From an uncultured Clostridiaceae bacterium (GTDB taxonomy: Bacteria; Bacillota; Clostridia; Saccharofermentanales; UBA5734): a stretch of DNA of 64,000 bases. The notes under the pieces were generated by a model that was given only the letters and a program-made list of their open reading frames with translations, ran no database searches and was not told where the DNA came from. The stretch's first letter is position 1, and each line of letters opens with the position of its first letter. Made by a program: the position numbers and the translations under genes. Shown here one piece after another: positions 6,208-42,650 of the stretch. The DNA lies in NCBI GenBank assembly GCA_942493365.1, contig OW818697.1:1122634-1186633 (forward strand). The letters run 5' to 3'.

Positions 6208-6242
6208 AAAGGGCAGGACAAGGCAACTTCGGGAGGATATTC

Positions 6243-8396: not shown

Positions 8397-10025
<1,629 letters not shown>

Positions 10026-10034
10026 AAAACCGAA

Positions 10035-10160
10035 GAAAAGCGACAAAAAACCGGCTTTTCAGCGAACCTGTAACAGGTAACAGGTAACAGGGAACAGGGA
10101 ACAGGTAACAGGTAACAGGTAATAGGTAATAGGAAGCGAGGAGCTGGCGAAAGCCGGCTC
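10035..10160 (+). repeat. heptad-array module downstream of groEL (hairpin, 12 x 7-bp units, second hairpin/terminator)
   Basis: GAAAAGC (10035-41) pairs with GCTTTTC (10054-60). Tandem 7-mers run from 10061 to 10144: AGCGAAC CTGTAAC AGGTAAC x2 AGGGAAC x2 AGGTAAC x2 AGGTAAT x2 AGGAAGC GAGGAGC. The hairpin GAGCTGGC-GAAA-GCCGGCTC (10141-10160) is followed by TTCAATTTT. Confidence 0.9.
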
Positions 10161-10351
10161 TTCAATTTTATCGAACACCTGATATAATCATTTTAGTTGA
10201 ATCGACAAAATACGCTTAGCCCAACATATAAAAATCCGAATATAGCAAGGGGTCTTTATGGGTAGCACATTCAGCAATATCAGCATCCTAAAAAGTGAAA
10301 CCAACCAAAATATATTTTCATAATTGGCACCAGCAGGGAGAGTAAAACACG

Positions 10352-11149: not shown

Positions 11150-11201
11150 TTAGCGACGATTCTGAACAATTATGAACTCCGGCACCCGCGGGGCGATTTT
11201 T

Positions 11202-11210
11202 TGTTATAAT
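11202..11210 (+). promoter_or_regulatory. extended -10 promoter candidate for the ABC-2 cluster
   Basis: TGtTATAAT at 11202-11210, about 65 nt upstream of ATG 11274. Confidence 0.45.
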
Positions 11211-11273
11211 CAGAACTTGTGAAAAGCATAAACCTCTCCACGACAAGGTGGATGGAGGCAAGGAGGAAGACGG

Positions 11274-12227: not shown

Positions 12228-12231
12228 TCGC

Positions 12232-26454: not shown

Positions 26455-28404
26455 ATGCGCATCAACAACAACCTGATGGCGATGAATACTCATCGTCAGT
26501 ATTCCGTGAACACTTTAGCCACATCCAAGTCCATTGAAAAGCTGTCATCCGGCCTGCGCATCGGTCGCGCCGGCGATGACGCCGCCGGTCTGGCCATCTG
26601 TGAGAAAATGCGCTCGCAGATCCGCGGCATGAACCAAGCAGCCCGCAACGCCCAGGACGGCATCTCGCTGATCCAGACCGCCGAGGGCGGCCTCGGCCAG
26701 ACGCACAGCCTGCTGCAGCGCATGCGCGAGCTGTCCGTGCAGAGCGCCAGTGACACCAACACCGCCGTTGAACGTTCCAGCTTGCAGCTCGAATTCGACC
26801 AGCTGACCGACGAAATCGACGACATCGCCAACAACACCAAATTCAACGGCATGAATCTGCTTAACGTCGGCGGCAGCTCCGTCAGCGCGTCGGTCACGAC
26901 CACAACCACCGGCGCCAGCTTTGGTGTGATTCAGGGCGATTCGGGCAACGGCGTCATCTCGCTGAACCAAGTAGTCCCCAGCGAAGCCGGATCATTAGCG
27001 CAATGGACCTTCGATATTACCAACGGGGGCGCGTTTAGTCAGGGAACCGGCATAATGCAATTCATGGGCGTGACATTGAGCATTGATGTTATTGGCGGTG
27101 GTGATCCGGCAGGTGTTTATTCGGCAACATCGCCTGTGAGTTCAACGGTAACCTTCGATGAAAATGCGACGACGGATGATGTAGCCGGTGGCATTGTTGC
27201 GGCCTTGACCGATCTGAGTAACAGCTTTGGCGGGTCATCCCCGATCAATGGTTTTACTTTCGCTGCGACCGGTAACCAAATAATGATTACAGCACCGGAT
27301 GCCGATGACGCCTATAACACTCGCAATGTTAACTTTACCAGCACGTCCAATGGCATCACAACAGCCGATCTCGCCTTACCAACGACGCTCAACGCCGCGG
27401 AACAGCTCGGCACCTATTCGTTTGTCATTGACAAGGCCATTGAAGCGGTCGGCGCCACGATCAACTTGGGCGGTGAAACCTTCACGGCTGTTGAATCGGG
27501 CGCGACTGGCAATCAATTCAACATCGGCACCGATGCCGGTGCTCAGGCCCAAAGTCTGGTCGATGCCATCAACGCCAACAACAACCTCAACACTCGCTTC
27601 ACAGCCAACGCGGTCGGCGGGGCAATCACCCTGACCGAAAAGACCGGCCAGGCCACTGGCGTTGATCTCACCGATTTAACGCTGGCCGGCAACACCCCGG
27701 TCGCAGGAGAATACACATTTCCGCTGGGTACTTCAATTCCGGACGGCGGCAGATACACCATTGACGGCGTTGACATCGCGGTCACAATTGATGCAGGCGA
27801 TGCCGGTATCGCTGCCGGTACGTCGGTACTCTATAATGCCGATCCGGATACCATGGCCGCCAATCTCAGCACGGCCATCGCCAACAATGCGGCCTTGTCT
27901 GCCAAATACATGCCCAGCGCAAGCGGCAACGTCATCACGCTGACGCAGCCTGGTCCGCCTTCCAGCATGACTGCCCCCGTCGTCACAGCCAGTACCAGCG
28001 ATGCAACGGGCTTTGATATTGAACTGCAGGTCGGCGCCGGGCCGGCCGATTCGCTGGAGCTGACAATCGCCAGCATGACCGGCGCCGCAATCGGCGTGGA
28101 GACCCTGAATATTTCCACCCGCAATGGCGCCAGCACAGCCATTACCGCGATCGACACGGCTGTCAACATGGTCTCCGGTGAACGTTCCAAAATGGGTGCC
28201 CTGCAGAACCGGCTGGGTCATAAAATCAGCAGTCTGGGCACGACCGGTGAGAACCTGACCGCTGCCGAATCGCGCATCCGTGACGTTGACATGGCCCACG
28301 AAATGATGATGTACACCAAGGACAACATCCTCGTCCAGGCCGCTACCGCCATGCTGGCGCAGGCCAATCAGGCGCCGCAGGCCGTGTTGCAATTGTTGCA
28401 GTAA
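26455..28404 (+). CDS. fliC: flagellin (large variable central domain), paralogue 1
   Basis: 649 aa. N-terminal MRINNNLMAMNTHRQY...LSSGLRIGRAGDDAAGLAI and C-terminal ...AMLAQANQAPQAVLQLLQ flagellin domains. The central region has flagellin-IN-like motifs. Confidence 0.93.
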   Translation: MRINNNLMAMNTHRQYSVNTLATSKSIEKLSSGLRIGRAGDDAAGLAICEKMRSQIRGMNQAARNAQDGISLIQTAEGGLGQTHSLLQRMRELSVQSASDTNTAVERSSLQLEFDQLTDEIDDIANNTKFNGMNLLNVGGSSVSASVTTTTTGASFGVIQGDSGNGVISLNQVVPSEAGSLAQWTFDITNGGAFSQGTGIMQFMGVTLSIDVIGGGDPAGVYSATSPVSSTVTFDENATTDDVAGGIVAALTDLSNSFGGSSPINGFTFAATGNQIMITAPDADDAYNTRNVNFTSTSNGITTADLALPTTLNAAEQLGTYSFVIDKAIEAVGATINLGGETFTAVESGATGNQFNIGTDAGAQAQSLVDAINANNNLNTRFTANAVGGAITLTEKTGQATGVDLTDLTLAGNTPVAGEYTFPLGTSIPDGGRYTIDGVDIAVTIDAGDAGIAAGTSVLYNADPDTMAANLSTAIANNAALSAKYMPSASGNVITLTQPGPPSSMTAPVVTASTSDATGFDIELQVGAGPADSLELTIASMTGAAIGVETLNISTRNGASTAITAIDTAVNMVSGERSKMGALQNRLGHKISSLGTTGENLTAAESRIRDVDMAHEMMMYTKDNILVQAATAMLAQANQAPQAVLQLLQ

Positions 28405-28424
28405 AATCGGTTTTGCCGATTTTT
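28403..28424 (+). terminator. flagellin-1 terminator hairpin (module hairpin)
   Basis: AAAATCGG-ttttg-CCGATTTT overlaps the stop codon and is followed by T. Confidence 0.75.
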
Positions 28425-28473
28425 ACAACGAAAAGGTAATAGCTAACAGGTAACAGTTGCGGATGACAAATCC
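28425..28473 (+). repeat. heptad array + end box (plus orientation)
   Basis: CAACGAA AAGGTAA TAGCTAA CAGGTAA CAGTTGC, then the end box GCGGATGACAAATCC (28459-28473). Confidence 0.85.
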
Positions 28474-28487
28474 TTTTAAACTGATCG

Positions 28488-28523
28488 AACCAAAAAGAGA
28501 TCGTGCGCGATCTCTTTTTGGTT
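28488..28523. terminator. 16-bp-stem palindromic hairpin (bidirectional terminator candidate)
   Basis: AACCAAAAAGAGATCG-tgcg-CGATCTCTTTTTGGTT. A near-identical copy lies at 30834-30869. Confidence 0.7.
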
Positions 28524-28635
28524 ACATTTTTTTCTGCTGGTTTGTGTGGAGTTATTATTGAGTTGAAAAATACAATGACCTGTAGCTTCATCAGGATTGC
28601 AATGTGATCTAAATTGATCTAAATCAAATTTTTAA

Positions 28636-28714
28636 GGATTCTCATACCGCCGTTGTTCGTTGTTCGTTGTTCGTTTTTAGCTTTTAGCTTTTAGCTTTTC
28701 GTTTTTAGTCCGTT
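28636..28714 (-). repeat. end box + heptad array (minus orientation)
   Basis: The plus strand reads GGATTCTCATACCGCC (28636-28651), then GTTGTTC x3 GTTTTTA GCTTTTA x2 GCTTTTC GTTTTTA. The minus strand reads ...AAGCTAA AAACGAA CAACGAA CAACGGCGGTATGAGAATCC. Confidence 0.85.
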
Positions 28715-28759
28715 ACTATATTTGAGGGTAAAAATACATCTTTACCCGTCTGCGCACGT

Positions 28760-28796
28760 GGGAAAGGATTCCCGACGCACTTATTCATGGAGGAAT
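28760..28796 (+). promoter_or_regulatory. conserved flagellin 5' leader (copy 2) with CsrA-type GGA hairpin
   Basis: GGGAAAGGATTCCCGACGCACTTATTCATGGAGGAATA is identical to 26412-26448. SD at 28789-28794. Confidence 0.6.
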
Positions 28797-28802
28797 ATTT
28801 CT

Positions 28803-30749
28803 ATGCGCATCAACAACAACCTGATGGCGATTAATACGCATCGCCAGTATTCAGTGAACACTGTTTCCACTGCCAAGTCGATCGAAAAGCTGTCATCTGG
28901 CTTGCGCATCGGCCGCGCCGGCGATGACGCCGCCGGTCTGGCCATCTGTGAGAAAATGCGTTCGCAGATCCGCGGCATGAACCAGGCAGCCCGCAATGCT
29001 CAGGATGGTATCTCGCTGATTCAGACCGCCGAGGGCGGCCTTGGCCAGACGCACAGCCTGCTGCAGCGCATGCGTGAATTGTCCGTGCAAAGCGCCAGTG
29101 ACACCAACACCGCCGTAGAACGTTCCAGTCTGCAACTCGAATTTGACCAGTTGAACGACGAAATCAACGACGTCGCCAACAACACCAAATTCAACGGCAT
29201 GAATCTGCTCAACGTCGGCGGCGGCACGAACTTCACCGCGGTCACGACATTGACAGCCGGAATCGGCAATGGCGTGATTCAAGGGAGCTTAGGTGGCGTG
29301 ATCCCGACGGATATTAACGCCAACAGCGTGGTGGGCAACAACGCGCAATGGATTGTCGACATTACCAACAACGGCTCATTTACTGATGGCGGCGCTGGCG
29401 ACATGCAATTCAACGACACATTTATTACCTATTCTTCTTCATTTCTTAATTCTTTTGCTGGCGATATAGTCTTACATGCAGCAGACAACTTTTCACTGAC
29501 CATCAATGACCAATCAACACCTGACATGTTGGCTGCTTGCCTCGCAAACGGCTTCAATCAATTAAATGCCAATTATGGCGAGTTTTCCCCGGTTAACGAT
29601 TTCAGCTTCAGTGCAACCGGCAATCAGCTGATCATTACTGCCTTGAATGCCAGCGCAGAATACGATGCCGAGGGCGTAACGATTACACCCTATTCTTTTG
29701 GCCTGACAACAGCCAGCCTCACCGAGCCCACGTCGCTTTACGTCGCGGAACAACGTGGCGATTATTCGTTTACCATCGACAAAGCCATTGAGGCGGTCGG
29801 CACCGAACTGAACATTGGCGGTGAAATTTTTACCGCCGTGGCCTCAGGCGCGACGGGCAATCAATTCAACGTCGGTACCGATGCCAACGCCCAGGCGCAA
29901 AGTCTGGTGGATGCCATCAACGCCAACAACAACCTCAATACCCGTTTTACCGCGAGCGCGGTCGGCGGTACAATCAGCCTGATCGAAAACGCCGGCCAGG
30001 CCACGGGAAGCGATTTGACCACGGTGACATTGTCGAACAATACGGCAGTGCCGGGCGAGTACACCTTTGATCTGAGCTCGTCAGTGCCGGTTGGTGGTCA
30101 ATACACCATCGACGGCGTTGACATCACCGTGACGGCGGACGTAGGTGACGCCGGTCTTGCCGATGGCACGACCGTTCTTTACAACGGAGATACGGATGCA
30201 CAGGCCGCCAATCTCAGCGCTGCGATCAACCAAAATGCCTTGCTGACGCCTCGTTACGATACCACCGCCAGCGGGAGTACGATAACCCTGAACCAAAACA
30301 TTTCCAGCAGCATGGGGACCCCGATTGTGTCCGCCAGCAGTAGCGAAACCGACGGCTTTGCCATCAACCTGCAGGTTGGCGCCAACACGGGTGATGACCT
30401 TGAGTTGACAATCGGCAGCATGACCGGCACGGCGATCGGTGTGGAAACCCTGAATATTTCCACCCGAAACGGTGCCAGCGCCGCCATTACCGCGATTGAT
30501 ACAGCGGTCAACACCGTTTCCAGTGAGCGATCCAAAATGGGTGCCTTGCAGAACAGGCTGAGCCACAAAGTCAGTAGCCTGGGCACGACCAGCGAAAACC
30601 TGACGGCCGCCGAATCGCGCATCCGCGACGTCGATATGGCGCACGAAATGATGACCTATACCAAAAACAACATCCTCGTCCAGGCGGCCACCGCCATGAT
30701 GGCACAGGCCAATCAGGCCCCGCAGGCCGTGCTGCAATTGCTGCAGTAA
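28803..30749 (+). CDS. fliC: flagellin, paralogue 2
   Basis: Start moved to ATG 28803 (MRINNNLMAINTHRQY), behind the conserved leader and SD. 648 aa. The N- and C-termini are nearly identical to paralogue 1, and the central domain is partly divergent. Confidence 0.93.
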   Translation: MRINNNLMAINTHRQYSVNTVSTAKSIEKLSSGLRIGRAGDDAAGLAICEKMRSQIRGMNQAARNAQDGISLIQTAEGGLGQTHSLLQRMRELSVQSASDTNTAVERSSLQLEFDQLNDEINDVANNTKFNGMNLLNVGGGTNFTAVTTLTAGIGNGVIQGSLGGVIPTDINANSVVGNNAQWIVDITNNGSFTDGGAGDMQFNDTFITYSSSFLNSFAGDIVLHAADNFSLTINDQSTPDMLAACLANGFNQLNANYGEFSPVNDFSFSATGNQLIITALNASAEYDAEGVTITPYSFGLTTASLTEPTSLYVAEQRGDYSFTIDKAIEAVGTELNIGGEIFTAVASGATGNQFNVGTDANAQAQSLVDAINANNNLNTRFTASAVGGTISLIENAGQATGSDLTTVTLSNNTAVPGEYTFDLSSSVPVGGQYTIDGVDITVTADVGDAGLADGTTVLYNGDTDAQAANLSAAINQNALLTPRYDTTASGSTITLNQNISSSMGTPIVSASSSETDGFAINLQVGANTGDDLELTIGSMTGTAIGVETLNISTRNGASAAITAIDTAVNTVSSERSKMGALQNRLSHKVSSLGTTSENLTAAESRIRDVDMAHEMMTYTKNNILVQAATAMMAQANQAPQAVLQLLQ

Positions 30750-30770
30750 AATTCGGCTACGCCGAATTTT
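30748..30770 (+). terminator. flagellin-2 terminator hairpin (module hairpin)
   Basis: AAAATTCGGC-tac-GCCGAATTTT overlaps the stop codon. Confidence 0.75.
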
Positions 30771-30820
30771 ACAACGAACAGGTAATAGCTAACAGGTAAC
30801 AGCTACGGAATGAATATCCC
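30771..30820 (+). repeat. heptad array + end box (plus orientation)
   Basis: CAACGAA CAGGTAA TAGCTAA CAGGTAA CAGCTAC, then GGAATGAATATCCC. Confidence 0.85.
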
Positions 30821-30833
30821 TTAAATTGATCAA

Positions 30834-30869
30834 AACCAAAAAGAGATCGCGTGCGATCTCTTTTTGGTT
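30834..30869. terminator. palindromic hairpin, paralogue of 28488-28523
   Basis: AACCAAAAAGAGATCGC-gt-GCGATCTCTTTTTGGTT. Confidence 0.7.
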
Positions 30870-30909: not shown

Positions 30910-31011
30910 GCAATTCTCATTCCGCCGTTGTTCGTTGTTCGTTTTTAGCTTTTAGCTTTTCGTTGTTCGTTGTTCGTTTTTAGCTGAAAAGGCGGCCGCA
31001 GCCGCCTTTTC
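30910..31011 (-). repeat. complete module in minus orientation: hairpin, 8 heptads, end box
   Basis: The minus strand reads GAAAAGGCGGC-tgcg-GCCGCCTTTTC (31011-30986), then CAGCTAA AAACGAA CAACGAA x2 AAGCTAA x2 AAACGAA CAACGAA, then CAACGGCGGAATGAGAATTGC. It sits directly after the stop of the small ORF 31019-31138. Confidence 0.9.
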
Positions 31012-31018
31012 ATATCGT

Positions 31019-31197: not shown

Positions 31198-33063
31198 TCA
31201 GGTCATTTCGACATACTCATCGTACAGACGGTCGAGCTCGGCCAAAACGTCGGAATAGCGGTGATAGGTTGCGGGGTCGGTGTCGCCGGTAAATCCGGCT
31301 TCCAGCAGGGCCTTTTCGCTTTCCAGGTCAGCGATTGACTTTTCAACCTGTCGCAAACGGTCTTTGCGTTGGGCGGTTTCGCGGCGCTCCTGGGCGCGGT
31401 TGGCGGTCGGGGTGGGTTCGGTTTTGCCGGGTGATGGCTGCGTTTGTTGAGCTGACGCGTTTTCAGCCTTACGAACGGCCTGGCGATAGGCGGTGAAATT
31501 GTCATAGGGCAGGACGCGGTCGCCAACAAAGCCGAGGACCTGCTGCGTGCAGCGTTCGATGAAGTAACGATCGTGGCTGACGGCCAGGATAGCGCCGGGG
31601 AAATCGACCAGGGCTTGCTCAAGGATTTCACGCGACTGGATGTCAAGGTGGTTGGTTGGTTCGTCGAGAAATAAGAGGTCGGGCCGCTCGAGCAGCAGGC
31701 AGGCCAGGTAGAGACGCGAGCGTTCGCCGCCGCTTAGGACGCGGATCGACTTGAAAACGTCAACGTCGCGGAAGCCATAGCGAGCGAGCAGGTTGCGGCC
31801 CTGGCCTTCGTCAAGGTCGGCGCGCTGCATCAGCTCGTCGAGCAACTGACGGTTTTCATCGGCAAAATCAACATGCTGGCCCATGTGGCCGTAAACAACA
31901 TTGCCGGCCAGCCGGACCTGCCCGGCGAAGTCGTCGACCTTGCCGAGCAGCAGTGACAGCAGGGTGGACTTGCCGCAGCCGTTGGGGCCGCACAGGCAGG
32001 TTTTCATACCGCCGCGCAACAAGAACGACACCTCGCGGAACAGCGGCTGGGGGCCGAAGCCGTAGGTCAGGTCGCGGGCGTCGAGCAGGATTTTCTCGGG
32101 GTCGCCCTCGGCCAGACCGGGGAGGAAACCGAAGTTGATGCGCTGATTTTGGCGGCGGGCGCGTTCGCGGATATCGTCGAGCTGGCCTGACAATTTGGCG
32201 ACGACCTTTTCGCGGGCGTGATAGGCCGACATCTTGCGGTGGGACAGCATGGTCTGGGTGACGTCCTTCTGGCGCTCCAGCTCACGGGCCAGCTTTTTCA
32301 TCTCGCGGCCGCGGGTCAGGTCCTCGGCGGCCTCGATCTCTTTGAAACGCGTGTAATTGCCCGGCCGCACGGTCAGCTTGCCGCCGGCCAGTTCAGCGAC
32401 GGCGGTGGCTGTGCGGTCGATGAAGGCGCGGTCGTGCGAGATGAGGAGGACGGAGCCCTTAAATTTGCAGAGGTAGTCCTCGAGCCATTCCATCGCCGCG
32501 AGGTCCATGTGGTTGGTCGGTTCGTCTAAAAGCAGCAGATCGGGTGATTTGAGCAGCAGCCGCGCCAACGCGACGCGCATGCGTTCGCCGCCTGACAGCG
32601 TGGTCAGCGGCCGATCTAAAATGTCGCCGGACAAACCCAATCCGGCCAGCGCTTCCTGCATGCGATGGGTAAAATCATATCCGCCCAACGCCTCGTAGCG
32701 GGCCGTGAGCTTGGTGTAGCGCTCGAGGTCGTCGCGGTGTCCGGCCGTCATGCTGGCTTCGAGGTCGCGCAACTGATCCTCCAGCTGCTGCAGCTCGTGG
32801 CTGACCAGCGCGGTCTCGGCCAGTTCGCCGGCATCCTCAAAATGCTGCGACAGGTAGCCCGGCACGACATTGTTGGGCAGGATGATCGAGCCCTGATCGG
32901 GCTTTTCCGTGCCGGTGATCAGGCGCAAAAGCGTCGTTTTGCCAGCCCCGTTATTGCCGATCAGCGCCAGCCGCTCGCCGCGATCCATCGCCAACGAGAC
33001 CTGGTCGAGCACGACCCGGCCAAAGTAGGATTTGCTGACGGCGCTGATGGTGAGCAGGCTCAC
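31198..33063 (-). CDS. ABC-F family ATPase (EttA/Uup-like translation factor type)
   Basis: 621 aa, no TM domain. Two ABC cassettes (GNNGAGKTT/LSGGERMR and GPNGCGKST/LSGGERSR). Charged C-terminal coiled-coil tail. Confidence 0.9.
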   Translation of the reverse strand: MSLLTISAVSKSYFGRVVLDQVSLAMDRGERLALIGNNGAGKTTLLRLITGTEKPDQGSIILPNNVVPGYLSQHFEDAGELAETALVSHELQQLEDQLRDLEASMTAGHRDDLERYTKLTARYEALGGYDFTHRMQEALAGLGLSGDILDRPLTTLSGGERMRVALARLLLKSPDLLLLDEPTNHMDLAAMEWLEDYLCKFKGSVLLISHDRAFIDRTATAVAELAGGKLTVRPGNYTRFKEIEAAEDLTRGREMKKLARELERQKDVTQTMLSHRKMSAYHAREKVVAKLSGQLDDIRERARRQNQRINFGFLPGLAEGDPEKILLDARDLTYGFGPQPLFREVSFLLRGGMKTCLCGPNGCGKSTLLSLLLGKVDDFAGQVRLAGNVVYGHMGQHVDFADENRQLLDELMQRADLDEGQGRNLLARYGFRDVDVFKSIRVLSGGERSRLYLACLLLERPDLLFLDEPTNHLDIQSREILEQALVDFPGAILAVSHDRYFIERCTQQVLGFVGDRVLPYDNFTAYRQAVRKAENASAQQTQPSPGKTEPTPTANRAQERRETAQRKDRLRQVEKSIADLESEKALLEAGFTGDTDPATYHRYSDVLAELDRLYDEYVEMT

Positions 33064-33174
33064 GGATGACCTCCCGGAAACGGTGAAAATACGATGTTCA
33101 GTATAGCATATGGGCGGCGAATTGGACAGGCGGGGGGAGGGCGCGATCTATAGTGCGGAATTTCGACTTTTCGT

Positions 33175-33216
33175 AGTTAGCGGCAAAGATGTGACGTCAC
33201 ATCTTTGCCGCTAACT
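33175..33216. repeat. perfect 42-bp palindrome (copy 2 of the 21-bp inverted-repeat element, no insert)
   Basis: AGTTAGCGGCAAAGATGTGAC|GTCACATCTTTGCCGCTAACT. It lies in the divergent region between the ABC-F gene and the cimA operon. Confidence 0.9.
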
Positions 33217-33358
33217 TGAAAAAACCGCATTTCAACACCAATAGGTGCGCTCCCGACCCCAATCTCGCTAAAAACGTGAAGAAAAAGGCGGCAGAACGGG
33301 ATTGCCCGAATTGCCGCTCAAGAGTATTCTATTAGTAGTGAAACGGGGTGAAGCACAA

Positions 33359-34948
33359 ATGAACAACCGTACGGTCGAGATCCTGGACACCACGCTGCGC
33401 GATGGCGCACAGGCCGAAGGCGTGTCGTTTTCGGTCAACGATAAGTTTCAGATTTTGGATTCGCTGGTTTCCATTGGTATTCAATACATTGAGGCGGGCA
33501 ATCCCGGCTCCAATCCCAAGGACCGCGAATTTTTCAGCAAGGTCGCCGATCGCCGCAGCAAAATGGGCGGCAGCGTGCTGGCCGCTTTTGGCAGCACCAA
33601 ACGCAAGGGCACCAAGGTAGCCGAGGACGAGGGCATCATCAACCTGCTGTCGGCCCAAACGCCGACCGTTGTCATATTTGGCAAGGCCTGGGACGTGGAA
33701 GTGCGCGAAAATCTGGGCTGCACGCTCAAGGAAAACCTGGCTATGATCACCGAAAGCGTCGCCTACCTCAAAGCCCAGGGCCGCGAGGTCATTTTCGATG
33801 CCGAACACTATTTTGAAGCCGCCCACGCCAACACCGAATACGCGCTCAAATGCCTCCAAGCTGCCGCCACCGGCGGGGCCGTTGTGGTCTGCCTGTGCGA
33901 CACCAACGGCGCGACGTTGCCCGAAGAGATCGCCAGTCGCACCGCCGAGGCGGTCGCCACCCTGCCCGGCACCAAGATCGGCATCCACTGCCACAACGAC
34001 AGCGGCCTGGCCGTGGCCAACTCACTGGCCGCCGTCAACGCCGGCGCGTCCCATGTGCAGGGCACCTTCAACGGTATCGGCGAGCGCTGCGGTAACGCCA
34101 ACCTGTCGACGATCATCGCCAACCTCCAGCTCAAATACGGCATCGACTGCATTCCAGCCGACCGCGTTGAGCTGCTGACCGCCGTCGCCCGCCGCATGGC
34201 CGAGATCACCAACATCGTGCTGCCCAACGGCGAACCCTTCGTCGGCCTTTCCGCCTTTTCGCACAAGGCCGGCATGCACATTGACGGTGTCAAGAAAAAC
34301 CCCAAGACCTTCGAACACGTTACCCCGGAATCGGTCGGCAACAACCGCCGCTTCCTGATTTCCGAGATTTCCGGACGTTCGGGCGTGATGGACATCATCC
34401 GCAAAATCAAGCCCGATCTTGCCAAAAACGCCCCCGAGGTCAGCCGCGTCCTGCACAAGCTCAAGGACATGGAACACCAGGGTTACCACTTCGAAGGTGC
34501 CGAAGCCTCGCAGGAACTCCTGGTTTGCAAGGAGCTGGGCCTCTACAAGCCCTTCTTCAACCTCGAGAAAATGCGCATCAGCAGCGAACAGCCCAGATCC
34601 GGCCCCAACAGCGCTTACACCTACATCAAAATCCAGGTTGAAGGCGTCGACGAAGTCACCGCCGCCGAGGGCGAAGGCCCGGTCAATGCCATGGACCTGG
34701 CGCTGAAAAAGGCCATGAACGTCTTCTACCCCGAACTGACCCAGGTCCGGCTGACCGACTTCAAGGTCCGCGTCCTCAATGCCGAAGCCACGGCTTCACA
34801 AGTACGAACCCTGATCGAATCAACCGACGGCCGCGTCGTCTGGAACACCATTGGTGTGTCCACCGACATTTTGGAAGCGTCCTATCTCGCCCTGGTTGAT
34901 TCGTTGGAGTATAAATTAATGCGCAGACAATTAGGTTGGGAGGAATAA
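33359..34948 (+). CDS. cimA: citramalate synthase / 2-isopropylmalate synthase family (CimA-like)
   Basis: Start moved to ATG 33359 ([25 protein letters not shown]). [17 protein letters not shown] motif. About 530 aa with a LeuA-type C-terminal regulatory domain. The CimA versus LeuA assignment is inferred from the N-terminal pattern. Confidence 0.75.
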
Positions 34949-34952
34949 ACCT

Positions 34953-36236
34953 ATGGCCATGACCATGACGCAAAAAATTCTGGCGGCTCATGCCGGCTTA
35001 CCCGAGGTTAAAGTTGGACAGCTGATCGAAGCCAAACTGGACCTTTGCTTGGGCAACGACGTGACGATTCCGCCGGCGCTCGATGTTTTCAAGACCACAG
35101 GCGTCGACAATGTCTTTGACAAGACCAAGATCGTTTTTGTACCGGACCATTTCACCCCGAACAAGGACATCAAATCCGCTGAAAACTGTGCCAGAATCCG
35201 CCGTTTCTCGCGGGCGCAGGATCTGCCCTACTACTACGAACAGGGTGAAGAGGGCATGGGCGTCGAGCACGTCATTCTGCCCGAAAACGGCCTGGTCGCG
35301 CCCGGCGATGCCATCATCGGCGCCGACTCGCATACCTGCACCTACGGCGCGCTCGGCGCCTTCGCGACCGGCGTCGGCAGCACCGACCTGGCCTGCGCCA
35401 TGGCCACCGGCCAGACCTGGTTCCGCGTGCCGGCCGCCATCAACTTTGTCCTCAAAGGCAAATTTCAGCCCGACGTCACCGGCAAGGATCTCATCCTGCA
35501 CCTGATTGGCATGATCAGCGTCGACGGCGCCCTCTACGAGTCGATGGAATTCACCGGCCCCGGCGTCGCCAACATCACCATGGCCGAGCGCCTGACCATC
35601 TGCAACATGGCCATTGAGGCCGGTGCCAAAAACGGCATCTTCCCGGTCGACGAGCAAACCATTGCCTACATTCAGCGCTTTGCCGGCGAACGCTACGAAA
35701 AGGGCCAGTACAAGGTTTTTGCCGCCGATGCCGACGCCGAATACGTGCGCACGATCGAGGTCGATCTCGCCACCATCCCGCTGACCGTGTCCTTCCCGCA
35801 TCTGCCCGACAACACCCGTGTCATGGGCACCTTCGGTGAGATCCCGATCGACCAGGTCGTCATCGGCTCCTGCACCAACGGCCGCCTCGAGGACATGCGT
35901 CTGGCTGCTGAATACCTCAAGGGCCGCAAGGTTAAAAAAGGCCTGCGCCTGATCATCCTGCCCGGCTCGCAGCGCGTCTGGAAAGAAAGCATGAAGGAGG
36001 GCCTGTTTGAGGTCTTCGTTGATGCCGGCGCCGTTGTCAGCGCCCCGACCTGCGGACCCTGCCTGGGCGGCCACATGGGCATCCTGGCCAAGGGCGAGCG
36101 CTGCGTCTCGACCACCAACAGGAATTTCGTCGGCCGCATGGGTCACCCCGAGTCCGAGGTTTACCTGGCCGGCGTCGCCGTCGCCTGTGCCTCGGCCGTC
36201 AAGGGCTACATCGCCGGTCCGTCCGAGTTGGAATAA
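34953..36236 (+). CDS. leuC: 3-isopropylmalate dehydratase large subunit
   Basis: 427 aa. Aconitase-family motifs [15 protein letters not shown] and [12 protein letters not shown]. Confidence 0.9.
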
Positions 36237-36251
36237 GGAGGAAGCAAAGTT

Positions 36252-36752
36252 ATGAATGCCAAAGGAAAAGTTTTTAAATACGGCGCCAATGTCGACACCG
36301 ACGTCATCATCCCGGCCCGTTACCTCAATACGTCCGACCCGGACGAACTGGCCAGCCACTGCATGGAGGACATCGACGCCACCTTTGTCGGCCGCGTCAA
36401 AAAGGGTGACATCATCGTTTCCGGCCCCAACTTCGGTTGCGGCTCCTCGCGCGAGCACGCTCCGATCGCCATCAAGGCCAGCGGTGTCAGCTGCGTCATC
36501 GCCCCCAGCTTTGCCCGTATTTTCTACCGCAACGCCATCAACATGGGCCTGCCGATCTTGGAATGCCCCGAGGCCTGTGCCGCTGTCAACGATGGCGACG
36601 AACTGGCGGTCGATTTCGACACCGGCGTCATCCAGGATCTGACCACCGGTAAAAGTTTCCAGGCCGAGCCCTTCCCAGAATTCATCAAAAAGATCATCGC
36701 CGCCGACGGTCTGGTCGGGTATATCAACGAACAGCGAAAAGCGAACAGGTAA
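36252..36752 (+). CDS. leuD: 3-isopropylmalate dehydratase small subunit
   Basis: 166 aa. [14 protein letters not shown] motif. The last about 9 codons and the TAA stop are encoded by heptad-array units. Confidence 0.9.
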
Positions 36753-36857
36753 CAGGTAACAGGTAACAGGTAACAACGAACAGGTAACAGGTAACAGGTA
36801 ACAGCGAACAGGTAACAGGTAACAGCTAACAGGTAACAGGTAACAATGAACAGTTGA
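36726..36857 (+). repeat. 19-unit heptad array between leuD and leuB (no hairpin)
   Basis: CAACGAA CAGCGAA AGCGAA CAGGTAA x4 CAACGAA CAGGTAA x3 CAGCGAA CAGGTAA x2 CAGCTAA CAGGTAA x2 CAATGAA CAGTTGA, running into GAGGAG (36856-61), the SD of leuB. Confidence 0.95.
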
Positions 36858-36869
36858 GGAGTACCAAAT

Positions 36870-37970
36870 ATGGCAAAGTATAAGATTGCGGTCATTCCCG
36901 GTGACGGGATAGGCCCTGAAGTGACCAACGGCAACCGGCTCGTGCTCGAGGCCGTCGCCAAAATATTTCAACATGAATTTCGATTCGAAGAGCTGCTGGC
37001 CGGCGGTATTGCCATCGACGCCACCGGCATCCCGCTGCCCCCGGCCACCGTCGCCGCCTGCAAAAACAGCGACGCCGTGCTGCTCGGCGCCGTCGGCGGA
37101 CCCAAGTGGGACACGCTGCCCGGCCATTTACGCCCGGAAAAGGCCCTGCTCGGCCTGCGTTCGGAGCTGGGCCTCTACGCCAACCTGCGTCCGGCTGTCC
37201 TCTACCCATCGCTGGCCTCGGCCTGCCCGCTGCATCCCTCGATCTCGGCCAACGGCATTGATATTCTCTTTGTCCGCGAGCTGACCGGCGGCATGTATTT
37301 CGGCGATCACGGCCGCCGCGACGGCGCTTACGGCCCCGAAGCCTTCGACACCGAATGCTACAGCGTCATGGAGGTCGAGCGCATTGCGCGCGTCGGCTTC
37401 GAACTGGCCCGCACCCGTGGCAAAAAACTGACCAGCGTTGACAAGGCCAACGTGCTCGAAAGCTCCCGCCTATGGCGCGAAACCGTGATCAAGGTCGCCG
37501 CCGACTACCCCGATGTCCAGCTCGATCACCTTTATGTCGACAACGCCTCGATGCAGCTGATCATGCGCCCCAGCACCTTCGATGTCGTCGTCACCAGCAA
37601 CATGTTTGGCGACATCCTCTCGGACGAAGCCTCGCAAATCACCGGCTCGATCGGCATGCTGCCCTCAGCCTCGCTCGGCAAACCCGGCACCCCGGGCATG
37701 TACGAGCCGATTCATGGCTCGGCTCCCGACATTGCCGGTCAGGACAAGGCCAATCCACTGGCGACAATTTTGTCGGGCGCCATGATGCTGCGCACCTCGC
37801 TCGGCCTTGAGGCCGAAGCCGCCGCCGTCGAGCAAGCTGTAGCCAGCGTACTTGACGCAGGCTACCGTACGGGTGATATACTCGATAAAACAGCGACAGA
37901 CAAGACCTACAAGCTGGTGGGCTGCAAAGCCATGAGTGATCTGGTGGTTGCCGCTTTACTGAAAGGATGA
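36870..37970 (+). CDS. leuB: 3-isopropylmalate dehydrogenase
   Basis: 366 aa. [14 protein letters not shown] and [12 protein letters not shown] motifs. Confidence 0.92.
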
Positions 37971-37977
37971 ACAGACC

Positions 37978-39645
37978 ATGAGAAGTGATGCCCTGAAGAA
38001 ATCGTCGGTTCGCGCCTCGCACCGCTCCCTGCTGTATGCCCTCGGCATGACCGAAGAAGAAATGAAGCGGCCGTTTATTGGGGTCGTCAACTCGTTCAAT
38101 GAAATCGTCCCCGGCCATGTTCACCTTCGCGGCCTGACCGACGCGGTCAAGGAAGGCATTCGCAACGCCGGCGGCGTGCCCTTTGAATTCCCGGCCATCG
38201 CCATTTGTGACGGCCTGGCCATGAACCACGCCGGCATGAAGTATTCGCTGGTCAGCCGCGACATCATCGCCGACAGCTGCGAAGTCATGCTGATGGCTCA
38301 CGCTTTCGACGCTGTCGTCTTCATCCCCAGCTGCGACAAGGTCGTGCCCGGCATGCTGATGGCGGCCGCCCGCATGAACCTGCCCAGCATCTTTGTCAGC
38401 GGTGGCCCCATGCTGCCCGGCAATTTCAAAGGCCAACGCATTGGCCTCAGCAACCTCTTTGAGGCCGCTGGTGCCCACGCGGCCGGCAAGATGAGCGACG
38501 AAGACCTGACCTGCATGGAAAAATCAGCCTGCCCGACCTGCGGCAGCTGCGCCGGCATGTACACCGCCAACACCATGAACTGCCTGACCGAGGCCATGGG
38601 CATGTCCCTGCCCGGCAGCGGCACCATCCCGGCCGTTTACGCCGATCGCACCCGCCTGGCCCGCCACACCGGCGAACAGATCATGAAACTGCTCGACAAC
38701 GGCCCGACCGCGCTCGAGATCCTGACCCCGGCCGCCATCCGCAACGCGCTGCGCGTCGACATGGCACTGGGCGGTTCGACCAACACCATCCTCCATCTAC
38801 TGGCCATCGCCCGCGAGGCCGGCTACGAGTTGACCATGGCCGAGATCAGTCAAATCAGCGACACGACACCGCAGCTGTGCAAGCTCAACCCGGCCGGCCC
38901 CGATTTCATCACCGACCTCAACGACGTTGGCGGCATCTCGGCCGTCCTGACCGAACTGGCCAAAAAACAGCTCGTCGATACTGCGAACCCCACCGTTGAC
39001 GGTACCATCGCCACCCGCACTGCCGGCAACCGCGGCGCTGACGGCCATGTCATCCGCTCGATCGCCACGCCCTATGCACCGGACGGCGGACTGGCCGTGC
39101 TGACCGGCAACCTCGCCCCCGAAGGCTGCGTCGTCAAAAAAGGTGCCGTGCTGCCCGAAATGATGCAGCACCAGGGTCCAGCCCGCGTTTTCGAAAGCGA
39201 AGAGCAGGTTTCCGAGGCCATCTTCGGCCAAAAAATCAAGCCCGGTGACGTTGTCGTCATTCGTTTTGAAGGCCCGCAGGGCGGCCCTGGCATGCGCGAA
39301 ATGTTGACGCCGACCAGCGCCCTCGCCGGCATGAACCTTGACACCTCAGTCGCCCTGATCACCGACGGTCGTTTCTCGGGGGCCAGCCGCGGCGCCTCGA
39401 TCGGCCACATCAGTCCCGAAGCCGCTGTTGGCGGCCTGATGGCCTACATTCACGAGGGCGATCAAATTAAAATTGATATCCCGGGCCGTACCCTGGAGTT
39501 GCTGGTGCCGGCCGCCGAACTGGCCGCTCGTACCCCCGCCCCGACGCCCGACCGCGGATTGACCGGCGTGCTCAGGCGCTACCAGAAGCAGGTCGCGGCC
39601 AGCAGCACGGGCGCGCGCATGATGATTGCCGGCGAGGAGGGTTAA
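37978..39645 (+). CDS. ilvD: dihydroxy-acid dehydratase
   Basis: 555 aa. [10 protein letters not shown] and GRFSGASRG motifs. Confidence 0.95.
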
Positions 39646-39647
39646 GC

Positions 39648-41354
39648 ATGAATGGTGCAGAAACAGTTATTGATTTTTTGATGAAAAAGGGCGTCAAGAA
39701 GGCCTTTGGCTACCCGGGCGGGTCGGTCATTGTCCTCTATGAAGCCATTCACAAATTAGGCTTCCCGCACATCCTGACCCGCCACGAACAGGGCGCGTCC
39801 CATGCCGCCGAAGGCTATGCCAAGGTGTCCGGTCAGCCCGGCGTCTGTATTGCCACCTCCGGCCCCGGCGCGACCAATCTGGTCACCGGCTTGGCCGATG
39901 CCTACCTCGATTCCGTGCCCGTCTTAGCCATCACCGGCGGCGTCACCCGTGCGGCGACCGGCACTGACGCCTTTCAGGAAGCCGACATCACCGGCATCAC
40001 AACGCCGATCACCAAATACAACTACCTCGTCATGGACCCTGAAGACCTGCTGCCGATGCTGGAAGAGGCCTGGGTGATGACCACCAAAGGCCGCCCCGGA
40101 CCGGTGCTGGTCAATATTCCCAAAGACATCCTGGCCATGCAGATCCAGCCCGCTGCGAACGCTCAGGCACCAACCTACATTCGCCACCGCCCGGCCAAGA
40201 TCAAGGCTGTGGCCATGACCGAAAAGATTTTCGATGCCCTGGCCGCCTGCAAACGCCCGCTGCTGATCGCCGGCGGCGGCTGCGTCATTTCCAAGGGCGG
40301 CACCGACGACCTCAAACTGTTTGCTGAAAGCCTTGGTATTCCGGTGGCCACCACCATGATGGGCAAAGGGGCCATTCTTGAGGATCACCCCCTATTTCTC
40401 GGTATCGTCGGCATGCACGGCACCCCGCAGGCCAACACGGCGCTGGGCAAATGCGACCTGCTGCTGGCCGTCGGCTGCCGCTTCAGCGACCGCGTCATCG
40501 GCAATCCCGAAATGTACAATCGTGTCGGCCGTACGATCATCCATGTCGACATTGATCCGGCTGAAATTGGCAAAAACATCAAAGCCACCCTCGAGGTCGA
40601 GGACGATGCTGCTGTGTTTTTCGAAGCCATGCTGACCGCTCGCCCCCAAACCGATTTCGCCGCCAACTGGACCGACTGGCGCGCTATGCTGCAGGCCAAG
40701 ATCGATCGTTTTCTGGTGCTCAAAAACGCCATGTACCGTGCTGCCTCGCCGATGTTGCCGCAATACGTCGTCCATCAGGTTGCCGAGGCCCTTAAGGGCC
40801 ACAACCCGATCGTTGTCACCGACGTTGGCCAGCACCAGATGTTCGTCATGCAGCACTATCCGATCGAATCGCCGCGTTCCTTTATTTCGTCCGGCGGTGC
40901 CGGCACGATGGGCTTTGGTCTGCCGGCGGCCATCGGCGCCTCGGCTGCCGAGCCCGACCGCACCACGGTCGTCTTTGTCGGCGACGGCGGTTTCCAGATG
41001 ACCATTCAGGAACTCGGCCTGCTCGACAAACTCAGGCTGCCGGTCAAGATCATCATCATGGACAACGGCTGCCTCGGCATGGTTCGCCAATGGCAGGAGC
41101 TGTTCTTCGACAAACACTACAGCCAGACCCTTTTGGACAACAACCCCGATTTTCTAAAGATCGCCGATGCCTACAACATCCCGGCCGGTGAGGCTTGCGA
41201 CGCCGCGACCCTGACGCAGCAAATCAAGACGGCGCTGGCCACCCAAGGGCCCTACGTCATCAGATGCGTCATCGACCCTGATCAAAACGTTTTCCCGATG
41301 ATACCGGCCGGCAAGATGCCGCAGGATCTCCTGATGCCAGGCATGGAAGAATGA
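39648..41354 (+). CDS. ilvB: acetolactate synthase large subunit
   Basis: 568 aa. ThDP motif GDGGFQMTIQELG...IIIMDNGCLGMVRQWQ. Confidence 0.9.
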   Translation: MNGAETVIDFLMKKGVKKAFGYPGGSVIVLYEAIHKLGFPHILTRHEQGASHAAEGYAKVSGQPGVCIATSGPGATNLVTGLADAYLDSVPVLAITGGVTRAATGTDAFQEADITGITTPITKYNYLVMDPEDLLPMLEEAWVMTTKGRPGPVLVNIPKDILAMQIQPAANAQAPTYIRHRPAKIKAVAMTEKIFDALAACKRPLLIAGGGCVISKGGTDDLKLFAESLGIPVATTMMGKGAILEDHPLFLGIVGMHGTPQANTALGKCDLLLAVGCRFSDRVIGNPEMYNRVGRTIIHVDIDPAEIGKNIKATLEVEDDAAVFFEAMLTARPQTDFAANWTDWRAMLQAKIDRFLVLKNAMYRAASPMLPQYVVHQVAEALKGHNPIVVTDVGQHQMFVMQHYPIESPRSFISSGGAGTMGFGLPAAIGASAAEPDRTTVVFVGDGGFQMTIQELGLLDKLRLPVKIIIMDNGCLGMVRQWQELFFDKHYSQTLLDNNPDFLKIADAYNIPAGEACDAATLTQQIKTALATQGPYVIRCVIDPDQNVFPMIPAGKMPQDLLMPGMEE

Positions 41355-41379
41355 AAAAACCGGCGAAAGCCGGTTTTTT
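41354..41379. terminator. bidirectional terminator hairpin after ilvB
   Basis: AAAAAACCGGC-GAAA-GCCGGTTTTTT. It is followed by three degenerate heptads and TTTGCGG (to 41408). Confidence 0.85.
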
Positions 41380-41408
41380 CGACGAAAGAAAATTCAGGAC
41401 ATTTGCGG

Positions 41409-41768
41409 TTAGGGTTTATTTTTTGATTTAAAAACCAGCCGCCACAGCAAGCCAACCCCCAGACCGAGTACAGCCGGGATAAATCCATAGATCAGACTGA
41501 TCCATTCCAGGGCGCCAAAGACGATGAACGGAATAAGCATACCACAAACGCCTGCAAACAGGGGATAAAGCCAAAACAGGGCAGCATGCTTGCGGCTGAT
41601 GACCATCGAAATAATCAATGAAACAAGGGGCATGACGACGAAAAAGCTCAGGATCCAGTAGGTGATCTCTTCGTGGTCAGGCAGTGTGACGCCGATCAGG
41701 GTGATGAGCAGGAAGATGGCTGCTGAGATGCTAAAGCTGAATAGGGAGAGTTTGTTTCCATTTATCAT
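41409..41768 (-). CDS. hypothetical small membrane protein (4 TM)
   Basis: Start moved to ATG 41768 (MINGNKLSLFSFS...), which has GGAGG 5 nt upstream. Hydrophobic throughout. Confidence 0.55.
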   Translation of the reverse strand: MINGNKLSLFSFSISAAIFLLITLIGVTLPDHEEITYWILSFFVVMPLVSLIISMVISRKHAALFWLYPLFAGVCGMLIPFIVFGALEWISLIYGFIPAVLGLGVGLLWRLVFKSKNKP

Positions 41769-41821
41769 AAATCCTCCAGAAGGTATTTTTTGAATTGTAC
41801 ATCTATTATACCTTGTCCGGT

Positions 41822-41850
41822 TTGACACCCCAACCCCCAAACACTATAAT
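41822..41850 (+). promoter_or_regulatory. consensus sigma-A promoter of the metal ABC operon
   Basis: TTGACA (41822-27), 17 nt, TATAAT (41845-50). Two palindromic TTGCAA hexamers (41856-61, 41867-72) sit at the predicted transcription start. Confidence 0.7.
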
Positions 41851-41855
41851 TCTAA

Positions 41856-42650
41856 TTGCAAGTGTGTTGCAACAAGACCGAATGGGCAGAGGAGGGATCC
41901 AATCTGAGCGACATTAATTTAAACGAACCCTGCTGTGAGCATGGCATTCACCCCTGGCATCACTTGCATCTGGATCATGTATCGGTGCGCCGCGGCAGCC
42001 AACTGATCATCGACGATGTCAGCTTCAGCCTGACCTGCGGCGAGTTGGTCGCCCTGATCGGCCCCAACGGCGGTGGCAAGAGCACCCTCCTCAAGACCAT
42101 TCTCGGCGAATGGCGCTATGACGGCAACATCACCTTCACCGATCGCGAGCGAAAAATCCTGCCCCGACCGCGTATTGGCTACATGCCGCAACAACTTGGC
42201 TTTGACCGGCAAGCCCCGTTGACCGTCGCCGACCTGCTACTGGCCAATCGCAGCCGCTGGCCGGTTTTTCTCGGTGCGCGCAAAAGCGACCGCCAGGCCG
42301 TGCGGGAGCTGCTTGACTTGGTCGACGCGGCGCACCTGATCGACCGTCGACTGGGCGCGTTGTCTGGCGGCGAACTGCAGCGGGTCACGCTGGCTTTTGC
42401 GCTCGACCCCATTCCGGACATCCTGCTGCTGGACGAGCCGGTTTCGGCGCTGGATGAAGAGGGCCAGGCGCTCTTTTATCAATTGGTCGGTGACCTGCGT
42501 CAGCGCTACGATCTGCTGACCCTGGTTGTTTCGCACGACGTTGAGGTTATCGCTGCATACGCCACGTCGCTGATTATCCTCAATCACTCGATCCGCGCGG
42601 CCGGCCCCACGGCCGAGGTGCTGGCCAGCAGGGGAGGTGAGTCGCGATGA
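41856..42650 (+). CDS. metal (Zn/Mn-type) ABC transporter ATP-binding protein with Cys/His-rich N-terminal extension; start uncertain
   Basis: Walker A GPNGGGKSTL, signature LSGGELQR. The track start TTG 41856 coincides with the predicted TSS. An in-frame CTG at 41904 has GGAGGG 7 nt upstream. N-terminal CCEHGIHPWHHLHLDH. Confidence 0.75.
   Translation: MQVCCNKTEWAEEGSNLSDINLNEPCCEHGIHPWHHLHLDHVSVRRGSQLIIDDVSFSLTCGELVALIGPNGGGKSTLLKTILGEWRYDGNITFTDRERKILPRPRIGYMPQQLGFDRQAPLTVADLLLANRSRWPVFLGARKSDRQAVRELLDLVDAAHLIDRRLGALSGGELQRVTLAFALDPIPDILLLDEPVSALDEEGQALFYQLVGDLRQRYDLLTLVVSHDVEVIAAYATSLIILNHSIRAAGPTAEVLASRGGESR

Follow-up and report, generated by a model that had tools for sequence, protein, structure and literature searches.

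A 64,000-nucleotide (nt) stretch of contig OW818697.1 from an uncultured Clostridiaceae bacterium, here called the window, contains a leu/ilv cluster of six genes, all intact and with full-length products. Between two of these genes, leuD and leuB, lies a tandem array of seven-nucleotide units (heptads). The leuD gene (36252-36752, + strand) encodes a 3-isopropylmalate dehydratase small subunit of 166 amino acids (aa) that is 92% identical to P0001, a protein with PF00694, and leuB (36870-37970, + strand) encodes a 366-aa 3-isopropylmalate dehydrogenase, whose orthologue in the related contig L081 carries PF00180 (Iso_dh). A sequence-only reading of this DNA had described a 19-unit heptad array at the junction, and this was confirmed by direct reading and by Tandem Repeats Finder (TRF). 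Cut in sevens from 36726, the + strand runs through 19 consecutive units to 36858, in the order AACGAAC, AGCGAAA, AGCGAAC, four AGGTAAC, AACGAAC, three AGGTAAC, AGCGAAC, two AGGTAAC, AGCTAAC, two AGGTAAC, AATGAAC and AGTTGAG. TRF places a period-7 repeat at 36744-36845 (14.6 copies, 87% matches), with a score of 162 that is the highest in the window, and our self-match scan also detects the array. The open reading frame (ORF) of LeuD extends into the array, such that its final eight residues, NEQRKANR, and its stop codon, a TAA at 36750-36752 inside the first AGGTAAC unit, are array-encoded. At the far end, the leuB Shine-Dalgarno (SD) sequence GAGGAG (36856-36861) abuts the array and is followed by an 8-nt spacer and the leuB ATG at 36870. 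The LeuD stop and the leuB ATG are 117 nt apart, whereas in the array-free relatives L227 and L228 the stop codon overlaps the leuB SD.

Comparison with related genomes separates older from younger parts of the array. Four related contigs have an array of four to seven units of the AACGAAC/AGCGAAC type at the leuD-leuB junction, and three further relatives (L227, L228 and L229) have none. In L227 and L228 the junction reads ...AAG TAA AGGAGCC...ATG (TAAAGGAG), with a spacer of 14-15 nt, and in L229 leuD overlaps leuB. In L081, LeuD ends ...YIASK TAA and is followed by a 10-bp hairpin (GAAAAGTCTG-cauua-CAGACTTTTC), by the four units AACGAAC, AGCGAAC, AGCGAAC and AACGAAC, and then by AGTTAAGGAG...ATG. 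L084 has a similar layout with a TAG stop, a hairpin and six units, while in L082/L083 there is no hairpin and about seven units begin at the TAA stop codon. The L081 hairpin folds with z = -3.57 and its stem differs from that of L084 by a compensatory T:A to A:T change, which indicates a real and maintained structure. Against this background the first three units of the window array (36726-36746, AACGAAC AGCGAAA AGCGAAC, coding N-E-Q-R-K-A-N) are of ancestral type, as the arrays of L081, L082 and L084 open alike, and so is the last unit, AATGAAC, with the terminus CAGT(T) (36845-36855), which aligns to AACGAAC-AGTT in L081 and L082 and to AACGAAC-AGTA in L084. Between these ancestral-type ends lies an expanded core (36747-36844) of 11 AGGTAAC units and single AACGAAC, AGCGAAC and AGCTAAC units; at this junction AGGTAAC occurs in the window only and in the array interior only, and none of the four relatives has such a unit in its homologous array. 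The window and L081 align with one 40-nt gap (GCCAGCAAGTAA + CCAGAAAAGTCTGCATTACAGACTTTTC), followed by matching opening units, and both share the far end AAxGAAC-AGTT-(A/G)AGGAG. The ASK codons, the original stop and the hairpin are all missing from the window. As the array-bearing relatives have a LeuD that ends ...YIASK-stop ahead of the array, the array-encoded tail and stop noted in the sequence-only reading are a derived state, and no relative was found with the same LeuD tail and no array.

From these comparisons we consider it probable that the array is a hypervariable heptanucleotide simple sequence repeat (SSR), passive and driven by slippage, whose history can be reconstructed. The ancestral junction would have been tight, with leuD ending ...AAG TAA and AGGAG about 10 nt before the ATG of leuB. 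A module of hairpin and heptads with a degenerate end box would then have been inserted between TAA and AGGAG in the common ancestor of the window and L081, L082 and L084. Every array-bearing relative has AGGAG, as do L227 and L228 (TAAAGGAG), and the core of the leuB SD is therefore ancestral. The filled site TAA-[module]-TAAGGAG (L081, L082 and L084), set against the empty site TAAAGGAG (L227 and L228), could be a short TAA-type target duplication made at module insertion, although one base is mismatched and a single site was analysed. In the window lineage, a 40-nt deletion would have removed the hairpin along with the final three codons of LeuD (A-S-K) and their stop, joining ...GGxTATATC to AACGAAC. 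Slipped-strand duplication of the new variant AGGTAAC would subsequently have raised the number of units from about 4-7 to 19. The hairpin would thus have been lost twice independently, in L082/L083 and in the window. The product would be an unstructured spacer of about 110 nt in the operon mRNA, passive or near-neutral and with no dedicated function at this locus. In agreement with this, unit type and number vary freely at orthologous sites and an array elsewhere in the window has decayed (41355-41408), both of which speak against a locus-specific role. An origin of the units as footprints of 7-bp transposon target-site duplications was also considered, but slippage accounts better for the block-wise variants, and a transposon of this kind is not apparent.

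The sequence-only reading had described leuD and leuB as normally tightly linked. This is accurate for the nearest array-free relatives, with their 14-15 nt, and does not extend to Clostridia more widely, as the spacers range from -19 to 713 nt across 22 Clostridia loci with leuB after leuD among the listed matches. The same reading had observed that the sequence CAGTTGCGG follows other arrays, which holds at 28454, 55355 and 56922 (- strand), and had proposed from this that a single change in the end box, from CAGTTGCGG to CAGTTGAGG, created the leuB ribosome-binding site. That proposal is not supported by the relatives, since L227 and L228 already have TAAAGGAG and the array-bearing relatives have CAGTTAAGGAG or TTTTTAAGGAG here. 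A CAGT(T) end common to the arrays best explains the likeness between SD and end box.

Transcription of the array as part of the operon mRNA is very probable, as had been argued beforehand. A scan of 33000-41900 found nothing resembling a promoter, and nothing resembling a + strand terminator, in the leuD-leuB interval, and in L081 the gap between the hairpin and the leuB SD consists of heptads only, so that leuB must be read through from upstream. The fold of 36720-36875 as RNA has z = -0.59, no more stable than shuffled sequences, and the statement that the array contains no hairpin is therefore upheld. A search against Rfam 15 gave no matches at gathering thresholds, and at E<=1 only chance miRNA-like ones on long hairpins elsewhere. 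The idea that the array holds the leuB SD open was rejected: in constrained partition functions the energy needed to open the SD is 7.9 kcal/mol in the window, 3.7-6.0 in the other array-bearing relatives and 6.5-8.2 in array-free ones, with no consistent effect of the array. As the LeuD stop lies 117 nt before the leuB ATG, translational coupling to leuD has been lost, and leuB is predicted to rely on its own strong ancestral SD.

The effect on LeuD follows from the reading frames of the units. Units of the AACGAAC type have no stop in any of six frames, while AGGTAAC units supply a TAA to each of the three sense frames (36750, 36757 and 36764), and LeuD therefore ends at the first AGGTAAC. 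Simulated gain or loss of one or two in-ORF units leaves LeuD intact with a tail of 8-15 residues. Beyond the conserved ...GLVGYI, LeuD tails are naturally variable in length and polar or basic, with total lengths of 161-178 aa, and the alignment of LeuD with the solved small-subunit structures 3VBA and 2PKP extends to residue ~161. The NEQRKANR tail is probably tolerated, since it lies outside this structure-aligned part. The general claim that arrays can remodel coding termini is supported and also has a parallel in the distantly related Clostridium nigeriense Marseille-P2414T (L053:3470-3625), whose LeuD is 73% identical and whose leuD-leuB spacer contains heptads. There, A-rich units AAGAATT/AAGAATG start within the end of LeuD, the stop TAA lies inside a heptad, and after two small hairpins come inverted, T-rich heptads that lie directly ahead of the leuB SD. 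In L229 (2521-3048) the LeuD terminus has been remodelled by another route, without any array: this protein is 85% identical and 175 aa long, with an extended tail (…RTAKGESSQCPDSK) and a 19-nt overlap with the start of leuB. On the opposite strand, two ORFs cross the window array (36524-36961, 145 aa, and 34998-37127, 709 aa, both - strand). These were ruled out as genes by codon-usage scoring; they are long because the complementary strand of the heptads is nearly free of stops, and could mislead gene callers.

The junction array belongs to a family that is abundant in the window. In a self-match scan at periods 3-12, the signal at period 7 is strong, with 189 scan windows compared to 0 at every other period, and a second threshold, applied at periods 4-11, gave 12 arrays at period 7 and 0 at the others. 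In total, 13 array loci lie in the 64 kb, all intergenic save for the 27 nt at the LeuD end, and in the DNA sampled the density is approximately one array per 5 kb. Two families of units can be distinguished, an AAC type (AACGAAC, AGCGAAC, AGGTAAC, AGCTAAA) and a purine-only type (GAAAGAT, GAAAGAC, GGTGAAG, AGTGAAA). The arrays commonly form part of a composite module, which begins with a terminator-like hairpin carrying runs of A and of T, continues with A-rich heptads and closes with an end box, (C)AGTTGCGGA(T/A)...AATCC, also written TTGCGGAT...AATCC. Among approximately 25 arrays examined, 12-13 have a 5' hairpin and 11 have an end box TTGCGGA(T/A)..AATCC; the window array at leuD-leuB carries neither. 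Six arrays lie 23-40 nt past the upstream stop codon. Seven have a gene's 3' end no more than 45 nt away, and every one of these shares the orientation of that gene. The modules typically lie just 3' of a gene and have their A-rich strand on its coding strand. Further arrays are found in divergent or promoter-side spacers, some as inverted pairs able to form long hairpins. The end box was rejected as a sigma-70 promoter, as TTGCGG-17-TATGAT fits only one copy, in L081, several copies have no gene ahead of them, and no relevant match came from the 33000-41900 scan. A role of the arrays as rho-utilisation sites was likewise rejected, as the sense units lack the YC dinucleotides generally taken as the criterion. 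The module signature AACGAACAGTTGCGGA gave at least 142 matches in metagenome and viral contigs; those listed all lack adjacent heptads and were set aside as chance 16-mers.

Individual members illustrate the range of the family. A sister array of AGGTAAC/AGGGAAC/AGGTAAT units, found by TRF and the self-match scan, lies 40 nt after groEL (10065-10135, + strand). A full module with hairpin and T run, heptads and the end box CAGTTGCGGATGACAAATCC follows flagellin gene 1 (28403-28479, + strand; repeat families D6 and D11), and a paralogous module, 81% identical to the first (D11), follows flagellin gene 2 (30749-30825, + strand). The two tandem flagellin paralogues (26455-30825; 649 and 675 aa, Flagellin_N/C) derive from a 2348-nt duplication that took along the heptad modules and a second terminator hairpin (28488-28523 and 30834-30869), such that array-bearing spacers were copied together with the genes. 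Upstream of flagellin gene 2 there is an array of AACGAAC/AAAAGCT units with the end box GGCGGTATGAGAATCC (28638-28708, - strand; D8), and a further module has the hairpin GAAAAGGCGGCTGCGGCCGCCTTTTC, heptads and an end box (30913-31012, - strand; D7, D8 and I21). A degenerate module with a terminator hairpin, decayed heptads and CATTTGCGG follows ilvB (41355-41408, + strand). A full module with a hairpin, CAACTAA/CAACGAA units and CAGTTGCGGAAATAATCC follows an ABC-2 permease gene (55303-55371, + strand; D6), and two tandem 77-nt modules, each with hairpin, heptads and the end box GCGGATGTGTAATCC, follow ilvC (56910-57063, - strand; D7). Near-identical terminator-like hairpins recur beside these arrays, as AAATCGGCTTGCGCCGATTTTT at 55303-55327 and 57035-57060 and as GAAAAGGCGGCCGCAG(C/A)CGCCTTTTC at 30986-31012 and 56957-56983. 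In one of the two pairs the + strand loop is identical though the modules point in opposite directions, and the array-side hairpins may themselves be a repeated element.

Purine-only units make up an array of GAAAGAT/GAAAGAC with the end box GGTGGAATGATAATCC (51449-51533, + strand; TRF and self-match scan), a short array of GGTGAAA-type units (51908-51936, - strand; TRF), an array of GGTGAAG-type units (61301-61363, + strand; TRF and self-match scan) and an inverted pair of purine-type arrays that could fold into one long hairpin (62882-62984, no strand assigned; TRF). This long hairpin accounts for the sub-threshold, miRNA-precursor-like Rfam matches at the same site. Purine-only heptads such as GGTGAAA, GGTGAAG and GAAAGAT presumably resemble repeated weak SDs, with a complement CACCTTTCACC that looks like the 16S rRNA 3' end CACCTCCTTTC; besides the window sites (51449-51936, 61301-61363 and 62882-62984), units of this kind occur in L228 at 14993-15030 and 17571-17607. 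A position at 530-551 that we considered as another stop codon inside a heptad has just two ACTAATA copies and is too weak to count. A separate repeat family is represented by a near-perfect palindrome of 43+43 nt (33153-33238; …GTTAGCGGCAAAGATGTGAC|GTCACATCTTTGCCGCTAAC…) in the 238-nt spacer upstream of leuA, with a related copy at 618-803 whose arms are 90 nt apart. Upstream of leuA, neither a T-box nor any further Rfam family was found.

The arrays are a feature of a lineage. Relatives L081/L232 (one contig), L084, L082/L083, L228 and L231 have 4-6 arrays per approximately 20 kb, while a background set of 470 kb from 80 other Clostridia loci (from the listed LeuD matches at 68-76% identity) has two arrays, both at leuD-leuB of C. 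nigeriense. The nearest named relatives by GroEL, at 88% identity, are metagenome-assembled genomes labelled Saccharofermentanales, Clostridiaceae or Eubacteriales bacterium. Array sites are conserved in position among the window, L081 and L228, and turnover at orthologous sites is rapid. Downstream of groEL, the window has nine units of AGGTAAC type, L231 has 3.5 ACAGATA units and L232 has none; downstream of ilvB, L081 has a hairpin, three AACGAAC units and CAGTTGCGGATTGGAATC where the window counterpart has decayed. In L228 an array of purine-only units reaches the beginning of the gene that follows ilvB. The divergent spacer between genes for an ABC exporter and an epimerase has four arrays in L232 (5942-6366), two of them tandem [AACGAAC x3-4 + CAGTT] and two inverted, has arrays of other units (GTGAATA) in L231 (5949-6139), and in the window, where the orthologous spacer is 195 nt (6048-6242), has none. 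Just downstream of groEL in L232, at the place of the 71-nt array of the window, lies an insertion sequence (11822-13357; DDE_Tnp_1 transposase, 511 aa), and the region is flanked by arrays at 13508 and 13694. A 745-aa 'GroEL', P0134 (L230:5426-7663), was rejected as a candidate array-driven extension, being internally duplicated and a chimeric assembly. Together with faults in L067 and L084, it belongs to a cluster of assembly problems in or close to such regions.

Several observations weigh against passive slippage as the whole explanation. In a neighbour-joining tree of LeuC, LeuD and LeuB (951 columns), L227 and L228 group with 97% bootstrap support, while the grouping of the window with L081 has 82%, and the identities of the window to L227 and L081 are nearly equal (LeuC 88 and 85%, LeuD 91 and 92%, LeuB 85 and 85%). 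This leaves room for independent insertions at a hot spot, for which the heptads of the distant C. nigeriense at the same junction, with their own LeuD stop in a heptad, and the frequent gain and loss of arrays between close relatives can also be cited. The arrays of the window and of the L081 clade would then be separate module insertions, and the LeuD tail would have been made by the insertion and not by a 40-nt deletion. We regard this as distinctly unlikely, as the first three units, the last unit and CAGTT match L081 in order (AACGAAC AGCGAAx AGCGAAC ... AAxGAAC AGTT), the right-hand junction T(A/G)AGGAG is common to both, and the best tree favours common ancestry. Further, AACGAAC and AGCGAAC recur across many loci, and across genomes that share these units while being just 57% identical at fourfold-degenerate sites; local neutral slippage by itself does not predict such recurrence. 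This hints at constraint, a trans-acting factor or the recent spread of a mobile module. Moreover, none of the clade members sampled has lost the array at the junction, including those in which the hairpin is gone, and the compensatory change in the hairpin also points toward some constraint. Finally, both co-transcription and neutrality are matters that we infer from sequence, and the window genome is a single assembly. It is possible, if rather doubtful, that the modules are an undescribed family of elements, actively spreading or maintained in this uncultured Clostridia lineage, with units of AACGAAC type and GGTGAAA type kept uniform across hundreds of loci, and across genomes whose synonymous sites are saturated, by a trans-acting factor that recognises or synthesises them, which may be a repeat-binding protein, a templated-addition enzyme, or machinery for transposition or gene conversion. 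Mobility of the modules is suggested by the one insertion between leuD and leuB and by the tandem 77-nt modules. If such a family exists, its activity at the RNA level could be measured at the leuD-leuB copy, which would be transcribed, translated and next to the ribosome.

That all five contigs of the array clade retain the array, those without a hairpin included, and that unit sequences are conserved across loci and across genomes with near-saturated synonymous sites could also reflect a functional cis-element of the operon mRNA, tuning leuB translation or mRNA stability after coupling was lost. Such an element could be an unstructured A-rich platform for an S1-, Csp- or CsrA-like protein, or for the 30S subunit (AGGU is a 4-nt anti-SD match), and it would fit with the direct contact of array and SD in the window and L081, with the L228 array that adjoins the start of the gene after ilvB, and with the translational roles that MacGregor proposed for TAACTGA heptamers just upstream of start codons (PMC4679880). 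We judge it unlikely, as most arrays follow terminator-like hairpins or sit in spacers that do not look transcribed rather than before gene starts, both the kind of unit and the copy number change freely from one orthologous site to another, no Rfam family matches, and the opening energy of the leuB SD shows no consistent effect. Heptad SSRs are prone to slippage, the first three units lie inside the ORF, and copy number at the junction is 4, 6, ~7 or 19 among relatives, all of which could be taken to indicate a contingency (phase-variation) locus in which copy number switches or grades LeuD and/or LeuB. This appears highly improbable. The TAA in all frames excludes an on/off switch for LeuD, since changes of one or two units still stop it within 8-15 residues, and the in-ORF units are imperfect copies. 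No promoter elements lie beside the array and no promoter spacing is affected, and these are housekeeping biosynthesis genes, with published heptamer arrays having no link to surface or virulence functions (PMC4692102). We give almost no credence to an error of long-read assembly as the source of the array length or the 40-nt deletion. Repeats are error-prone, L084 has frameshifted genes (leuC and leuB are split at 8705-11723), L067 has a 100-N gap with duplicated flanks precisely at the end of leuD (3487-3586), and the exact proteins of the window are present in one assembly only; however, the six leu/ilv genes of the window are intact, the internal variants are ordered and not noisy, a precise 40-nt loss that leaves a clean ORF end is unlikely as an error, and the same kind of array is present in five independent assemblies.

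The arrays belong to a known class, that of intergenic heptanucleotide repeats. In Xanthomonas (GGGAATC) and Nostoc/Anabaena (GGGGA(C/T)T), heptamer arrays are ~90% intergenic, and their mean distance of 28 nt to the upstream ORF is much shorter than that to the downstream one (Rehm et al. 2015, PMC4692102). They keep their positions and vary in length, with no link to a class of genes and no function found; many are transcribed, including a Nostoc array inside an operon between pecE and pecF. The units are rich in G and form G-quadruplexes, and four copies is the preferred number (PMC4692102). The arrays described here are similar in being intergenic, of period 7, near the 3' end of the upstream ORF and conserved in position. 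They differ in having A-rich units without G-tracts (no GGG run save in an occasional GGGTGAA), in their Clostridia host, in the hairpin and conserved end box that flank them, and in the fusion with a coding terminus, of which PMC4692102 describes no case. Direct repeats of TAACTGA are abundant and intergenic in marine Beggiatoaceae, some Cyanobacteria and Bacteroidetes (MacGregor 2015, PMC4679880). They are often found directly before a start codon, and some lie in ribosomal-protein operons or inside ORFs; most have 2-6 copies that replace the SD, and an RNA-binding protein has been proposed (PMC4679880). In both systems a unit sequence is common to many loci and species; in contrast to the one dominant unit there, we find two unit families with many variants, most arrays after gene 3' ends and hairpins, and a leuB that retains a canonical SD. 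The TAACTGA unit itself is in no array of the window or its relatives.

Heptanucleotides are the most over-represented class of long SSRs (LSSRs) in many genomes, with polymerase slippage as the proposed cause (Mrazek 2007, as summarised in PMC4679880), and in LSSRs and short tandemly repeated repetitive sequences, including those of Calothrix PCC 7601, units that are not a multiple of three are reported to be excluded from coding regions (as summarised in PMC4679880 and PMC4692102). The present arrays have the properties of heptanucleotide LSSRs as given in these summaries, namely 7-nt units placed head to tail, a bias to non-coding DNA, and variation in copy number and sequence at orthologous sites. 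The surveys, as far as the summaries convey them, contain no hairpin-array-end-box module and do not list this Clostridia lineage, and the density found here, ~1 per 5 kb sampled, appears very high. The pneumococcal BOX element (boxA-boxB(n)-boxC) and the enterobacterial repetitive extragenic palindromic (REP) sequences and bacterial interspersed mosaic elements (BIMEs) have variable internal tandem units between conserved terminal boxes. Such elements lie after genes or within operons, are transcribed, contain hairpins and vary in presence among relatives. The likeness is one of composite architecture only, as the unit here is 7 nt compared to the 45-nt boxB, there are no long terminal inverted repeats, and there is no sequence similarity. 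A limited literature search found no report of heptamer repeats in Clostridia or Firmicutes.

The arrays of the window thus represent a new lineage and a hairpin-heptad-end-box layout for a known, unexplained class of repeat. The leuD-leuB array is well delimited and informative about evolution, and we regard it as an instructive accident and not as a new mechanism. Both the preference for seven bases and the function of heptanucleotide arrays are unexplained (PMC4692102, PMC4679880), and this lineage adds a Gram-positive, A-rich and very dense example that does not form G-quadruplexes and has a modular context. Such A-rich arrays weigh against explanations specific to G-quadruplexes. For annotation, care is needed at gene ends beside arrays and in assemblies across them. 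The leuD-leuB junction is a natural experiment in three states: empty, with a hairpin and a short array, and with a hairpin-less array fused to the ORF. It illustrates that repeats can rewrite a protein C-terminus and uncouple two operon genes while breaking neither, with stops in three frames as a safeguard.

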